A stretch of 64,000 nucleotides of DNA from NCBI GenBank assembly GCA_965204745.1, contig OZ242010.1, positions 4,032,001-4,096,000 of the forward strand, given 5' to 3'. The notes under the pieces are model-generated. The model was given only the letters and a program-made list of their open reading frames with translations. It ran no database searches and had not been told where the DNA came from. Position numbers and translations under genes: made by a program. This document shows positions 38,556 to 45,726 of this stretch, piece after piece (within the stretch, counting starts at the first letter, position 1; the number at the start of each line of letters is the position of its first letter). Source of the DNA: Candidatus Latescibacterota bacterium (GTDB lineage: Bacteria > Latescibacterota > UBA2968).

Positions 38556-38581
38556 GGACAGGCACAGGGGCCTGTCCCTAC
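38556..38581 (-). repeat. GTAG-type REP-like palindrome
   Basis: gtagggacaggcccctgtgcctgtcc; 25/26 identical to 31188..31213. Confidence 0.75.
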
Positions 38582-39056
38582 GGGGTTGGACGGACTGCCG
38601 ACCACTTAGGGGCGGCTTTGGGGTCGCCTTCTCCCTTCTTATACCAAATTGAATTGCTGTTGTCCTAATGCGATGCGATATGCTATCAGCCAGTGCTCCT
38701 CTTGACACTCCGCAGTCATTCAGAGAAGCCATTGCAAAAATGCCCTCGCAAAAGCCCATCCGCTAAAGCCATCACGCACAGCGCGCAAGTCCATTGGCAA
38801 CCCACATTTATGTTGCAACCCACCTTGCAGGCTGGCGCATATCGTACTGCTACAAAAGCGATTTGCGCTGTGCAAGCCCCTCGGCGTTTGAGAGCGGCAT
38901 TTTTTGCTTACTTTTTTTTGCTGTTGAAAAAAAGTAAGTCGCCGAAGGCATCGAAGGCAACAAACAATGCTTTAGGGCCAAACGCTTGAGGCAAGATCTG
39001 AGCGGTTTTGGGGTCGCCTTCTCACCTCTCCCTTCTTACGTCTCACGCCTTCCTTC

Positions 39057-39842
39057 TCACCTCTCCCATCTCATCTCTCCCGCCTTTCGTCTTGCCTCTC
39101 CCGCCTCTTTGATCCAGTCATATCCCTTTTCTTCCAATTCCAAGGCCAGGGTTTTGTCGCCGGATTGCACAATGCGCCCGTCGAGCATCACATGCACCAC
39201 GTCGGGCACGATGTCGTTGAGCAACCGCTGGTAGTGCGTCACCACAATGGTCGCTTTGTCCGCGCCGTGCAGGGTGTTGACCCCGTTGGCAACCACGCGC
39301 AGTGCGTCGATGTCGAGGCCGGAGTCGGTCTCGTCGAGAATGGCGAGCCGGGGTTCCAAGACCGCCAGTTGCAAAATTTCATGGCGTTTTTTTTCCCCGC
39401 CGGAAAAGCCTTCGTTGACCGGGCGATTGAGAAATTTTTCGTCCATCTCGACCAGTTTGAGTTTGTCCCGAATCAGGGCGAGAAAGTCAAACGCATCGAT
39501 CTCGTCTTCTGCTCTCGCTTTGCGAATGGCGTTGAGGGCCGTCCGCAGAAAGTACGCGCTGTTCACGCCGGGGATTTCCACCGGATATTGAAACGCGAGA
39601 AACACGCCCTGCGCCGCGCGTTCATCCGGGGCCATGTCGAGCAGGTCTTCGCCCTGATAGATGACGTCGCCCGCCGTGACGCAATACGCTTCGTGACCCG
39701 CGAGCACCTGCGCCAACGTGCTCTTGCCCGATCCGTTGGGCCCCATAATGGCGTGGGTTTCGCCCGCATTGACCGCGAGATCGATGCCGTGCAAAATCTC
39801 TGCCCCCTCCACACCTGCATGCAAATTCCGAATTTCCAACAT
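39057..39842 (-). CDS. sufC: Fe-S assembly ATPase SufC
   Basis: MGPNGSGKST, GFSGGEKK, LDETDSGLDID, THYQRLL. Confidence 0.96.
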   Translation of the reverse strand: MLEIRNLHAGVEGAEILHGIDLAVNAGETHAIMGPNGSGKSTLAQVLAGHEAYCVTAGDVIYQGEDLLDMAPDERAAQGVFLAFQYPVEIPGVNSAYFLRTALNAIRKARAEDEIDAFDFLALIRDKLKLVEMDEKFLNRPVNEGFSGGEKKRHEILQLAVLEPRLAILDETDSGLDIDALRVVANGVNTLHGADKATIVVTHYQRLLNDIVPDVVHVMLDGRIVQSGDKTLALELEEKGYDWIKEAGEARRKAGEMRWER

Positions 39843-39868
39843 GTATTCATTCCCCATTGTTTTGCGAT

Positions 39869-40486
39869 TTAAGTGACGACCACATGAATGGCCTCGCAAA
39901 CATCTTGAATAAAATCTACGGCGTCCGTCGACTCAGAAGGCGAAATGGGCCAACGGCTTTCGGTTCCGGGATAGTCCGGATCCAAGTCGGCTTCATGGGC
40001 GATTTTATTCCGGCGATCAACGATAAGGCGAAGCCGATTTTTCACATCTGGCACTGTCAATCCCAGGTGCGAAGCAACGGAGGGCCATAACTCGCTCGAG
40101 GAGAAAAGCCGAACCGCATCGGCTATCTTGTCTGGGTGCTGAAAAGCCAAATGTCCGTGGCTCTCGCGGATTGCCGTCTCAAGCCAAGCGTTCCCACTCG
40201 ATCCGGCAATCCCTGTCATGGCGGCATCTATCGTCACTTGAAAGCGCGAGAAAGCATTGGTCGGAGGGCGTTTTCCATCGTACACCTCTAACATCCCAAT
40301 CCGGGTGATCGAATGGATGTAATGGTCGAGCGCGCTCACGACCATCACGATTTGTGTGCGTAAAAGATCGGTCACATCTACGATAGGCGTCGTCAATTGC
40401 CCCAATGCCTCATACAACCCGCCGATGGCACGCACCCGTTCCATATTCGCACGAAATTGTTGAATGGCACTAGGTCGTGTTGACAT
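39869..40486 (-). CDS. HEPN domain protein (RiboL-PSP-HEPN-like); current start codon supplied by an IS end
   Basis: VMVVSALDHYIH, FQHPDKI, RRNKIAHE (Rx4H). Confidence 0.8.
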   Translation of the reverse strand: MSTRPSAIQQFRANMERVRAIGGLYEALGQLTTPIVDVTDLLRTQIVMVVSALDHYIHSITRIGMLEVYDGKRPPTNAFSRFQVTIDAAMTGIAGSSGNAWLETAIRESHGHLAFQHPDKIADAVRLFSSSELWPSVASHLGLTVPDVKNRLRLIVDRRNKIAHEADLDPDYPGTESRWPISPSESTDAVDFIQDVCEAIHVVVT

Positions 40487-41333
40487 TTTATTTTTTTAGC
40501 GTTATGGACTGATTAGGTTCTGTTGACATTTGGGATATTTTGAGTTACTCTGTGTGTATGTCAAACCTTATTCTTTCTGCGAACCAGTGGCCTAAAATTC
40601 TCGCATTCATCCGCGAATGCCCTCGCGTCTATGTCGGCGAGGAAGCCGGTTGCAAACGCTTCATTGAAGCGGTTCTGTGGGTGATGCGCTCGGGTGGTCA
40701 GTGGCGTCAGTTGCCCGCACAGTACGGGAAGTGGAACACAGTCTATAAACGCTTTGCTCGCTGGTGCCGGTATGGCGTGTGGGAACGCATGCACCAGCAT
40801 TTTACGTCTGATCCAGACTTGGCATGTCTGATCATTGACAGCACTGTCGTGCGTGCTCATGCCTGTGCAGCGGGTGCCTCAAAAAAAAAGGGGGGCAAGC
40901 CGCGCAAGCCCTCGGCAAGAGCCGAGGCGGGTTCAGCACCAAAATCCATCTCTGCACAGATGCGCGTGGCCTCCCGCTCCGGTTTCGACTCACACCGGGA
41001 CAAACCCACGATATCACGCAAGCCGAAGCGTTAATCGCTGGGTATGAGAGCCGATCTGTCATCGCGGATAAGGGCTATGATTCACAAGCGTTTCTGGACG
41101 TCCTTTCTCACCATGGACAGGTTGCCGTGATTCCGCCCCGGTCTTATCGCAAGACCCCGCGTGATTATGATCGCCATCGGTATAAGCAACGCAATTTGAT
41201 TGAGCGGTTGATTGGAAAAATGAAGCAGTATCGCAGGATATTTGCTCGCTTTGAGAAACTCAGCACGAGTTATCGAGGCTTTCTCGCTTTTGCGGCCACG
41301 CTCATCGCTCTAAAACAAAATGTCAACAGAACC
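40473..41333 (+). mobile_element. IS5-family element (core 40516..41333) with an extra captured end at 40473
   Basis: IRs ggtcgtgttgacatt (40473), ggttctgttgacatt (40516), aatgtcaacagaacc (to 41333); TA flanks each end. Confidence 0.88.
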
Positions 41334-41336
41334 TAA
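40558..41336 (+). CDS. IS5-family transposase, two ORFs joined by -1 frameshift
   Basis: WRQLP..YGKWNTVY, IDST; A9G6 slippery site at 40881-40895; -1 frame SRGGFSTKIH, ADKGYD, RNLIER. Confidence 0.88.
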
Positions 41337-42379
41337 GCATGTTCAATGAGCTTTATGATTCGGTCCGCACCCTTGTCGTATAAATCCCGAAATCGCAGCA
41401 TGGATTCCCTGGTGATTTCGAGTACGCTTCCGCGTCGTTCAAGTTGTTCATCGGTCAAATCGAAAATAGGAGCTTTGTGCTTTTGCGAAAGGGCGATCAG
41501 GCTGTTGAAGTCTGCCATCTGAAGAAGTGGTTGGTCTATCTGAAAACCAATTTTTTTGTACACCTTCTCGGGAAGCAACATATCGCGTTCTCTTAACACG
41601 GGTATGAGCTTTTCCTCAACTCCCTTTTTAATTTGATCAATCCAATTTTGGAATGCAGCAGCGGGGATTTTGCCCCTTCCCGGCCTAAATTTCTGAAGGA
41701 TCATTCCGAGAAACTTGGGCGTCTTATCGGGAAAAGGATAAACCGCCTCTCTGAGCACTCTTATTTTTTTTGCTTCCCCTGCCCAAGCCGACCATTTGGG
41801 CAAAACAGCGGCAAGGCTGTCCGTCGCCATTGCTGAAAAGTAATCCGGCATCATGGGAACGATGAAATAATCACTCGTCATCAGCAGGTTTTGGTTGATT
41901 GGCCCCAGGCTGGGGCTCATATCCACGAGAATAAAATCGGCGTCGTACTTCTCGGCAGTTTTAGAAAAGAGATCATGGAGAGAACCTGGCAAATTTTGGA
42001 GTGTCACCAACGAGCCTGACAACTCTTGGGCAATGCCCAAGGTGACTTCGTATTCGGCGAGGCCAATGTGACCGGGCAAGAGATGCATGTTCGGTTGTCC
42101 CTTGATTGCCTCACAAATCACGGGTTTAATCAGTGCGGGTTGAGATTCAAAAGCGGGCGCGAGACCGTCGCGGATATTCCTCACATCTTTTGATTTCATC
42201 GATGCAAAATCCCAAGCATCCTTGAATCCGAGAACCATGCCCGTGAGATTGCACTGCGGGTCGCAGTCGGCGAGGATCACCTTTTTCCCTTTGTTCGCCA
42301 ACATCCAACCGAGGTTGAAGGCAGTCGTTGTCTTGCTCACGCCGCCCTTGTGATTGAAGAGTGCAATTTGTTTTGCCAT
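41333..42379 (-). CDS. ParA/Soj-like ATPase (extended, ~350 aa)
   Basis: FNHKGGVSKTT, DCDPQCNLT, VDMSPSLG; GGAGG RBS; no parB adjacent. Confidence 0.85.
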   Translation of the reverse strand: MAKQIALFNHKGGVSKTTTAFNLGWMLANKGKKVILADCDPQCNLTGMVLGFKDAWDFASMKSKDVRNIRDGLAPAFESQPALIKPVICEAIKGQPNMHLLPGHIGLAEYEVTLGIAQELSGSLVTLQNLPGSLHDLFSKTAEKYDADFILVDMSPSLGPINQNLLMTSDYFIVPMMPDYFSAMATDSLAAVLPKWSAWAGEAKKIRVLREAVYPFPDKTPKFLGMILQKFRPGRGKIPAAAFQNWIDQIKKGVEEKLIPVLRERDMLLPEKVYKKIGFQIDQPLLQMADFNSLIALSQKHKAPIFDLTDEQLERRGSVLEITRESMLRFRDLYDKGADRIIKLIEHA

Positions 42380-42433
42380 GTGATGCCCTCCGTTGTGCTT
42401 TCGGGTTATCTGCATTCATTGAAGGATTTATTC

Positions 42434-43939: not shown

Positions 43940-43968
43940 AACTTACCTTAAGCATACAAAAATGTCAA
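43940..43968 (-). promoter_or_regulatory. suf operon promoter
   Basis: TTGACA-17 nt-TAAGTT, followed by AAGGAG RBS of sufB. Confidence 0.65.
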
Positions 43969-44293: not shown

Positions 44294-44992
44294 TCAGTTC
44301 GCCCCAAGCATTTTGATTCCGAGGGCAAACAGACCGACCATGAGGCCGCCCAAGCTGAGCATGAGGCCGAATATCCATTTCAGCAGATCGGATTTGATGG
44401 CCTCAATTTTGGCTTCGGTGGACAAGCGCAGAGCCTCGATGTCGGCCTTGGTCTCCAACTGTTGGGCCTCAATTTTGGACTCGGTGGACAAACGCAGAGC
44501 CTCAATGTCGGCCTTAGTCTCCAACTGCTGTGCCTCGATTTTGGCTTCGGTGGACAAGCGCAGAGCCTCGATATCGGCTTTGATAGCCTCGATGTCGGCC
44601 TTGGTCTCCAACTGCTGGGTCTCGATTTTGGCTTCGGTGGACAAGCGCAGAGCCTCAATTTTGGCCTCGGTGGACAAACGCAGGGCCTCGATGTCGGCCT
44701 TGACAGCCTCGATGTCGGTTTTGGTTGACAAACGCAGGGCCTCGATGTCGGCCTTGACAGCCTCGATGTCGGTTTTGGTTGACAAACGCAGGGCCTCGAT
44801 GTCGGCCTTGGTCGCCAAGTACATGCCCTCGATATCGGCCTTGACAGCCTCGATGTCGGCTTTGGTCGCCAAGTTGCTGTTGAGCAAATTGACCTGCTCG
44901 TTGGCCAGGGCCTCCGCCTGTTGTTCGGTAAAGCCGTTTGCCGTCAGGTGCTTGACGAATTGATGCGTGTCAAAGGCGATGGCTTCGCTCAT
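44294..44992 (-). CDS. DUF1640/CCDC90-like membrane-anchored coiled-coil protein, copy 1 (232 aa)
   Basis: [20 protein letters not shown] head, LATKAD neck, repeat stalk, LLKWIFG TM anchor; GAGGAG RBS. Confidence 0.85.
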
Positions 44993-45105
44993 GCTGTTCT
45001 CCTCGTCTGAAGTCCGCGTTGGCGGCTGTGCCTGTGCATCTACGCAGTTGTGCCCCATCCGTCTATTTGCACTTTTTGTCGTGTATTTTGATAGGGCAGA
45101 CAAAT

Positions 45106-45726
45106 TCAGTTCGCCCCGAGCATTTTGATTCCGAGGGCAAACAGACCGACCATGAGGCCGCCCAAGCTGAGCACGAGGCCGAATATCCATTTCAACAGAT
45201 CGGATTTGATGGCCTCGATTTTGGCTTCAGTGGACAAGCGCAGAGCCTCGATGTCGGCCTTGGTCTCCAACTGTTGGGCCTCGATTTTGGCTTCGGTGGA
45301 CAAGCGCAGAGCCTCGATATCGGCTTTGATAGCCTCAATTTTGGACTCGGTTTCCAACTGCTGGGTCTCAAGATCAGCTTTAGTCGCCAAACGCAGGGCC
45401 TCAATTTTGGACTCGGTGGACAAGCGCAGAGCCTCGATGTCGGCTTTAACAGTCTCGATGTCGGCCTTGGTGGACAATTGCAGAGCCTCAATTTTGGCTT
45501 CAGTGGACAAGCGCAGGGCCTCGATATCGGCCTTGACAGCCGCGATGTCGGCCTTGACAGCCGCGATGTCGGCCTTGATAGCCGCGATGTCGGTTTTGGT
45601 CGCCAAGTTGCTGTTGAGCAAATTGACCTGCTCGTTGGCCAGGGCCTCGGCCTGTTGTTCGGTAAAGCCGTTTGCCGTCAGGTGCTTGACGAATTGATGC
45701 GTGTCAAAGGCGATGGCTTCGCTCAT
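45106..45726 (-). CDS. DUF1640/CCDC90-like protein, copy 2 (206 aa)
   Basis: Near-identical head and anchor to copy 1; different stalk. Confidence 0.85.
   Translation of the reverse strand: MSEAIAFDTHQFVKHLTANGFTEQQAEALANEQVNLLNSNLATKTDIAAIKADIAAVKADIAAVKADIEALRLSTEAKIEALQLSTKADIETVKADIEALRLSTESKIEALRLATKADLETQQLETESKIEAIKADIEALRLSTEAKIEAQQLETKADIEALRLSTEAKIEAIKSDLLKWIFGLVLSLGGLMVGLFALGIKMLGAN

Follow-up and report, generated by a model that had tools for sequence, protein, structure and literature searches.

The stretch examined here, 64,000 nucleotides of contig OZ242010.1 from a Candidatus Latescibacterota bacterium (assembly GCA_965204745.1, positions 4,032,001 to 4,096,000 of the forward strand; hereafter the window), carries within its suf operon a gene for a ParA-type ATPase paired with a gene for a HEPN protein. 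On the minus strand the order is sufB (43903-42434), the ParA-family ATPase gene, an insertion sequence (IS) of the IS5 family, the HEPN gene and sufC (39057-39842), followed by sufD, sufS, sufU and a SufT-like gene down to 35089. The whole variable cassette, from the sufB stop to the sufC leader, spans 39864-42433 of the same strand, and its bounds are branch points of assembly graphs. An earlier note on this DNA had proposed that the two genes form a candidate defense system in which an ATPase sensor or antitoxin controls an RNase under the suf promoter.

The ATPase gene (41333-42379, minus strand), directly preceded by a Shine-Dalgarno-like GGAGG, encodes a 348-residue protein of the ParA/Soj family (SIMIBI class) that ends in EHA. 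The protein matches Pfam AAA_31 with an E value of 1.4e-31, and its structural model (predicted local distance difference test score, pLDDT, 83) is closest in Foldseek to DIP2308 (3PG5, E value 9e-13) and Soj (2BEK, E value 1e-12); it has the ParA/Soj fold as defined by Li et al. in 2026. The Walker A motif, NHKGGVSKT (42329-42355, minus strand), is deviant, with Ser at the canonical Gly position. This Ser is present in 61 of 74 intact homologues and the canonical Gly in 8. In an alignment of 48 sequences from the best 80 related loci (described below), K11, K16 and T17 are invariant, yet the motif reads KGGVSKT and not KGGxGK[ST] as defined. Also present are the DxD after strand 2, with D38 and D40 invariant, and the Walker B motif DhhhhD (D148-FILV-D153). 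The PriB1/ConB1 features N9 (before Walker A), Q42 (two residues after the DxD) and V14 (within Walker A) are invariant but, as the housekeeping Soj of the host has them too, they cannot tell a ConB1 protein from an ordinary ParA. A tblastn search with a single query, the ParB-like protein of the host, found no ParB match in either the window or the 80 related loci, in agreement with the earlier description of an extended ParA/Soj ATPase without parB. On the same one-query result a ParABS partition system was rejected. An Mrp/ApbC-type iron-sulfur (Fe-S) carrier was rejected as well, as the corresponding models align to no more than the first 40-50 residues and score far below the cut-off. The canonical Soj of the host lies elsewhere, near 2.27 Mb of G000, with an adjoining open reading frame (ORF) named ParB-like from its sequence. 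A second extended ParA of 336 residues, also ParB-less and 26% identical to the one in the window, is encoded at G000:C1:486722-488943; it is preceded by a 397-residue ORF that, we assume, resembles Schlafen/AlbA proteins, and the locus is another candidate ParA conflict module.

The HEPN gene (39869-40486, minus strand) encodes 205 residues from an ATG supplied by the IS and 202 residues in IS-free alleles. The protein belongs to PF18735 (RiboL-PSP-HEPN), which it matches at 44.5 bits (cut-off 28.4); all 52 family members match this model as well. Its catalytic Rx4H motif, RRNKIAHE (39992-40015, minus strand), is intact, as had been read earlier from the translation. All 75 intact HEPNs have the Rx4H motif, and R152, R153, N154, H158 and E159 (P0002 numbering) are invariant in 52 aligned homologues. 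The structural model (pLDDT 93) is an all-helical HEPN fold, and HEPN-domain structures fill most of the top ranks of a wide structural search; the two best matches have Z scores of 9.5 and 9.2 (root-mean-square deviation 2.9, about 117 aligned residues), which are modest values for helical bundles. Foldseek gave no match to this model at an E value of 0.001 or below, and a sequence search of the PDB with the HEPN profile gave nothing significant. The protein combines the fold and the Rx4-6H motif of the active HEPN superfamily, and we predict that it is an RNase acting as a dimer. Cyanobacterial relatives of about 258 residues (L147 and L148) contain a stretch of roughly 40-55 residues that is duplicated internally, and in another HEPN (P0043) a shorter stretch is duplicated at a comparable position. 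A search for longer forms found a single 546-residue ParA-HEPN fusion on one contig (P0137), possibly a frameshift artifact and not used as evidence.

Between the two genes, the IS occupies 861 bp (40473-41333, plus strand), made up of an 818-bp core (40516-41333) and a 43-bp second left end, and is flanked by a TA duplication (40471-40472 and 41334-41335). Its transposase is encoded by two ORFs on the plus strand, antisense to the operon, whose frames are offset at an A/G run, presumably the site of a frameshift. Eight full cores are present in the genome, three of them with the same 43-bp extension. The possibility of two separate IS remnants was rejected, since the 861-bp extended unit recurs at two other genome sites, so that the unit is one insertion event. 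The native HEPN start (ATG, 41340-41338, minus strand), which overlaps the end of parA by 8 nt, is now cut off from its gene. The parA stop codon consists of the TA duplication and the first base of the IS, and a new in-frame ATG at 40486 is supplied by the end of the IS without a Shine-Dalgarno-like sequence; hence, both frames stay open but their coupling is lost. Translation of HEPN is likely to be reduced in this allele, and the copy is perhaps weakened. Removal of the IS in silico restores a HEPN start (MLSA) that overlaps the end of parA by 8 nt, as the earlier note had held. The same overlap is found in two IS-free relatives (L001 in G018 and L034 in G016), and a 97%-identical 202-residue HEPN starting with MLSA is present in a 16-member protein cluster. 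The IS-free joint (40469|41333) was detected in seven of eight sequencing runs from five studies (four without a possible source sample). In run X1 the depth of this joint was 46.5 versus 95-109 for the flanking genes, which suggests that IS and IS-free alleles occur together in one sample, although depth is not the share of cells. A sigma70-like match inside the IS (TTGACA-16-CAAAAT, 40537-40564, minus strand) points outward, toward HEPN, but such matches are at chance level, with 4 found in the region versus 3.8 expected. Across G000 there is also a large family of short elements with the end motif of the IS (exact-pattern matches: 66 of the left type and 69 of the right type, 20 of them paired, mostly 380-600 bp), which are probably miniature inverted-repeat transposable element-like derivatives of the IS5 group of the window.

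The pair is widely conserved. A scan of GTDB found at least 351 loci with a HEPN relative, of which the best 80 were used for locus counts, and at least 3,374 protein clusters matched the HEPN profile among the candidates scored. These 80 loci come from Latescibacterota, Poribacteria, Chloroflexota, Acidobacteriota, Planctomycetota, Cyanobacteriota, Pseudomonadota and other taxa. A ParA gene lies directly upstream of HEPN in all 77 loci with at least 1.2 kb of upstream sequence, the conservation that the earlier note had wished to see counted. In 61 of 78 loci the two genes overlap, by either 8 or 17 nt, so that translational coupling, as proposed for the window, is likely for the family, if not for the present IS allele. 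Pairwise identities of ParA and HEPN co-vary (Spearman 0.63 over 71 pairs, versus 0.24 for the best of 999 permutations), a relationship that shared ancestry alone also produces. In three genomes, ratios of nonsynonymous to synonymous substitution rates (dN/dS) were 0.15-0.18 for ParA and 0.22-0.27 for HEPN versus 0.04-0.08 for sufB and sufC; judged by these ratios, the pair is under purifying selection with a dN/dS several times that of its neighbors. The G+C content at third codon positions is 0.55-0.58 in the pair versus 0.72-0.73 in the suf genes. The nearest sampled neighbors in our tree are from Poribacteria and Caldilineaceae (L001 and L034 are outside the tree rows), and the runs labeled by habitat come from sponge or marine metagenomes. 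These neighbors and habitats are consistent with transfer among co-living symbionts. Damage to one partner was seen in both directions: HEPN is damaged beside an intact ParA in three loci (L014, L020 and L068), and ParA is damaged beside an intact HEPN frame in two, of which L064 is without the Walker A region and L080 is frameshifted.

Mobile elements also carry the pair. Two Pseudomonas inovirus records (Pf inoviruses) have it, with a ParA 39% identical to that of the window, at a position we take to be an accessory slot for toxin and defense genes. Burkholderia plasmids gave 13 records with a HEPN match, in one of which adjacency to ParA was checked. Among the best 80 of 146 ParA loci on viral contigs, 73 were informative; HEPN was present in 24 of these, and 49 had no HEPN match. 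No conserved partner gene was found beside the lone viral ParA in the 28 of these 49 loci that were examined. Phage SE1 encodes a lone ParA, whose gene is located between the cI region and the antiterminator. We built a quick tree of 83 rows, comprising every fourth genomic ParA, the non-redundant viral ParAs of at least 280 residues and two host paralogues. One group, with a Shimodaira-Hasegawa-like approximate likelihood ratio (SH-aLRT) support of 95, unites 46 HEPN-linked ParAs with a single lone copy, which is truncated, and sits amid lone ParAs. Its sequence relationships suggest a single gain of HEPN by a ParA clade and, because the HEPN-linked ParAs group among standalone ones, that the ATPase also has a function where the RNase is absent. 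At L195:5026-5955, a ParA gene from the same wider clade overlaps a gene for a 310-residue protein with an RxxxxH motif and no match to the HEPN profile of the window, possibly an effector swap.

The location of the pair within the suf operon appears to be incidental. Among 41 related genomes HEPN was found in 3. We inspected 30 of 40 loci matching sufC, 21 of them from the same genus and 9 from other genera. At the sufB-sufC junction, the 21 loci of the genus have the pair in 3, a ParE-like cassette in 4 and a spacer of 24-28 bp in 14, while the 9 loci from other genera have spacers of 20-144 bp. The alternative cassette (L086:930-1479, also in L087, L090 and L101), 592 bp long where sufB is present, encodes a 100-residue protein without a Pfam match and a ParE-like toxin (PF24732). 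Read graphs branch precisely at 39863 and 42434. In run X2 the IS-free cassette forms one contig of 1,767 nt with a depth of 20 between flanks at 50-64; runs X1 and X3 contain a joint spanning the cassette (30-letter sides, likeness 90, the intervening letters unread); and, as we read its record coordinates, the X3 contig has about 1.5 kb of other sequence at the slot. Metagenome contigs scanned for the sufC leader, in order to read alternative cargo, gave 0 matches. Another junction of the same operon holds a restriction-modification (R-M) methyltransferase and a NYN gene in some genomes only. The cassette alternatives, the graph branch points and this second variable junction together mark the sufB-sufC site as a variable slot. 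The pair has been retained there in three genomes with synonymous divergence (dS) of about 0.3-0.5, and among the 80 related loci only 2 have suf genes on both sides. A promoter scan found no promoter-like site just upstream of parA, and promoter and terminator counts for the region were at chance level. A candidate operon promoter (TTGACA-17-TAAGTT, 43940-43968, minus strand), identified by eye and below the scan threshold, lies 5' of sufB. The cassette, without an evident promoter of its own, likely rides on the suf transcript. The position inside the operon that the earlier note had stressed is real, but it looks incidental, being confined to three related genomes.

The pair is not new in kind, as ParA-HEPN has been predicted in print since 2013. 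Anantharaman et al. (PMC3710099) described, in the text available, a dyad of a ParA/Soj-like ATPase and a HEPN of the MAE_18760 family and proposed the ATPase as antitoxin and the HEPN as toxin. Like the pair in the window, this dyad consists of two genes with the ATPase upstream of a HEPN with an intact Rx4-6H motif. The HEPN of the window, however, has no match to PF18737 (MAE_28990/MAE_18760); in its family, all 52 members score to PF18735 and only 11 of 52 to PF18737, weakly and below cut-off. Of 30 cyanobacterial PF18737 loci, only 3 have an adjacent ParA of the same clade, and all three are weak matches belonging to the HEPN family of the window, a sequence-based hint that the 2013 dyad is this family. 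More recently, Li, Burroughs and Aravind (bioRxiv 10.64898/2026.10.19.760177), as far as their accessible text goes, listed ParA with HEPN as subtype (v) of "ParA-effector systems" in the ConB1 clade, described standalone prophage ParA (STP) lineages and ParA inside type I R-M loci, and proposed, as a prediction only, DNA interception with release of the effector. The ParA of the window resembles their HEPN subtype in being ParB-less, coupled to a HEPN RNase gene and endowed with PriB1/ConB1 motif features. That text mentions neither the suf slot nor a Walker A with Ser nor uncoupling by an IS. A literature search in which most subscription journals were not covered found neither an experimental study of the two-gene ParA-HEPN family nor a report of a sufB-sufC slot.

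The closest tested analogue is RemAIN of Salmonella Gifsy-1 (STM14_3218-3220), an anti-phage system described in the sections seen of PMC13043305 and PMC9879122 as an ATPase, an immunity protein and a HEPN anticodon nuclease. RemAIN shares with the window a ParA-like ATPase without ParB and a HEPN nuclease, and it is prophage-borne. However, RemAIN has three genes, including that for the immunity protein, whereas the ParA and HEPN genes here overlap or abut with no gene between; its ATPase gene is 840 bp long versus 1,047 bp; and its HEPN is of another family (PHEPN1, as assigned by Li et al.), compared with ours by description only. MNT-HEPN (HepT/MntA) similarly has an enzyme gene upstream of a HEPN toxin, and its structures are among the fold matches (5YEP and 7AE2, Z scores 8.7 and 8.0), but the partner there is a nucleotidyltransferase and here a P-loop ATPase. 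PF18735 itself is listed for PD-T4-2, PD-T4-5, PD-T7-3 and ApeA in the part consulted of PMC10952713.

On balance, we think it probable that ParA-HEPN is a conserved mobile unit, likely of abortive defense, in which the ATPase would be the sensor or switch and HEPN the back-up RNase. Every step of such a mechanism is conjecture on our part. Infection by a phage or plasmid would cause the ATPase to shift its nucleotide or oligomeric state, possibly on the DNA of the invader; the ATPase would then unleash HEPN, the predicted dimeric RNase; and, by analogy with RemAIN and HepS, the RNase would cut host RNA, probably tRNA or rRNA, so that the cell arrests. The pair directly follows the type I R-M specificity gene hsdS in three loci (L048, L057 and L074). 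Several results weigh against this interpretation. Defense genes made up 17 of 274 neighbors (in 11 of 78 loci) versus 3 of 129 in a control drawn from 10 genomes of the same order as the host (20 random regions of 9 kb each), with heuristic gene calls (Fisher p 0.14), so that the enrichment that the earlier note had wished to see tested was not significant. These counts include hits of at least 100 bits after exclusion by hand of generic hits (ABC ATPase, kinase, dGTPase, sigma54 activator and partial MzaA); without the exclusions they become 21 of 274 versus 7 of 129 (p 0.53). Among the PADLOC 2.0 models, HEPN matched none of the families and ParA gave only short Walker A matches (residues 2-47 of PDC-M28B), leaving no named system that matches both components. 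The Ser in place of the canonical Gly makes ATPase activity an assumption, and the tree is a quick one, with long outgroup branches and without a clade test, which leaves the order of events tentative. NCBIfam also holds no system name for the pair, and the words "ParA" and "Soj" are absent, by word search, from the main texts of the DefensePredictor paper (PMC13092281) and the P2/P4 hotspot paper (PMC13586616). As to whether the pair was already catalogued, which the earlier note had left open, the 2013 dyad and subtype (v) had predicted its kind.

The most serious rival, which we regard as rather unlikely though well worth weighing, is a toxin-antitoxin addiction module. Here, HEPN would be constitutively toxic, ParA would neutralize it by binding or modification, and phage defense would be a by-product of a lost supply of antitoxin. 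Exactly this model was postulated in 2013, in the portion seen of PMC3710099. It fits the absence of any HEPN without ParA in the 77 informative loci, the antitoxin-first gene order with overlap, the three loci with a broken HEPN beside an intact ParA and the ParE-like two-gene cassette that four genomes of the genus have in the same slot. Yet the same ParA clade lives alone in many prophages, and a 348-residue ATPase with all nucleotide motifs conserved exceeds the needs of a decoy. The damaged ParA beside an intact HEPN frame in L064 and L080 points the same way, with the reservation that both are metagenome-assembled genomes and lost coupling could silence HEPN. Because close ParA relatives occur alone in prophages, we favor a sensor or switch over a pure antitoxin; of the two roles that the earlier note offered for the ATPase, that of antitoxin is weakened. 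A link to Fe-S biogenesis is very unlikely, whether as growth arrest under iron or oxidative stress through induction of suf or with ParA as a cluster carrier like Mrp/ApbC. The pair is co-oriented with the suf genes, lacks a detected promoter-like site just upstream of parA and has persisted at the site in three genomes, but suf genes flank it on both sides in so few related loci, the slot is empty in 14 of the 21 genomes of the genus and holds another cassette in 4, the carrier models cover no more than the start of the protein, and the operon accommodates a methyltransferase and NYN gene in another junction. Least credible of all is the idea that a mobile element uses the ParA for ordinary partition or positioning, with HEPN as passenger. 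The Soj/ParA fold and public records that name relatives "ParA-like partition protein" speak for it; the missing ParB match, the distance of the ParA from the host Soj in the tree, its presence in lambdoid phages as well as in small inoviruses that integrate, and the strict linkage to HEPN within the clade all speak against it.

A more elaborate version of the preferred interpretation, of abortive defense with the ATPase as sensor or switch, is doubtful but can be stated. A standalone prophage ParA of the NHKGGVSKT clade, itself a defense ATPase, may have captured HEPN once and become its activator and not its antitoxin, giving a minimal ATPase-switched RNase of two genes; the sufB-sufC junction would be a swap slot that places interchangeable toxin cassettes under Fe-S stress control in a sponge-symbiont lineage; and the IS would serve as a dimmer at the level of the population, uncoupling the RNase while both genes stay intact. 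As ParA-HEPN is widespread, also in culturable bacteria and inoviruses, it offers a ready test of whether a conflict-type ParA is antitoxin, sensor or effector, and the standalone and HEPN-linked ParAs of one clade provide a natural comparison. The locus also gives an example, within one genus, of a core-operon junction that is used as a slot for varying toxin-like cassettes.

Other parts of the operon region vary as well. The gap between sufC and sufD (38565-39057) is about 540 bp versus 13-16 bp in most members of the genus, holds repeated sequence and probably arose by insertion of a repeat element. The segment 31837-35043, which separates the SufT-like gene from the Rrf2 regulator, contains genes for a type II DNA methyltransferase, for a DDE transposase and for an NYN-domain protein, a block that is absent in G014 and G008; in G018 and G001 an extra ORF, probably a restriction enzyme and not seen in the window, follows the methyltransferase. 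On the other side, 5' of sufB, 44294-45726 contains two tandem coiled-coil repeat genes (CCDC90-like, with PF07798 for the first) and a gene for a small zinc-ribbon membrane protein, and the number of genes in this block differs between relatives.

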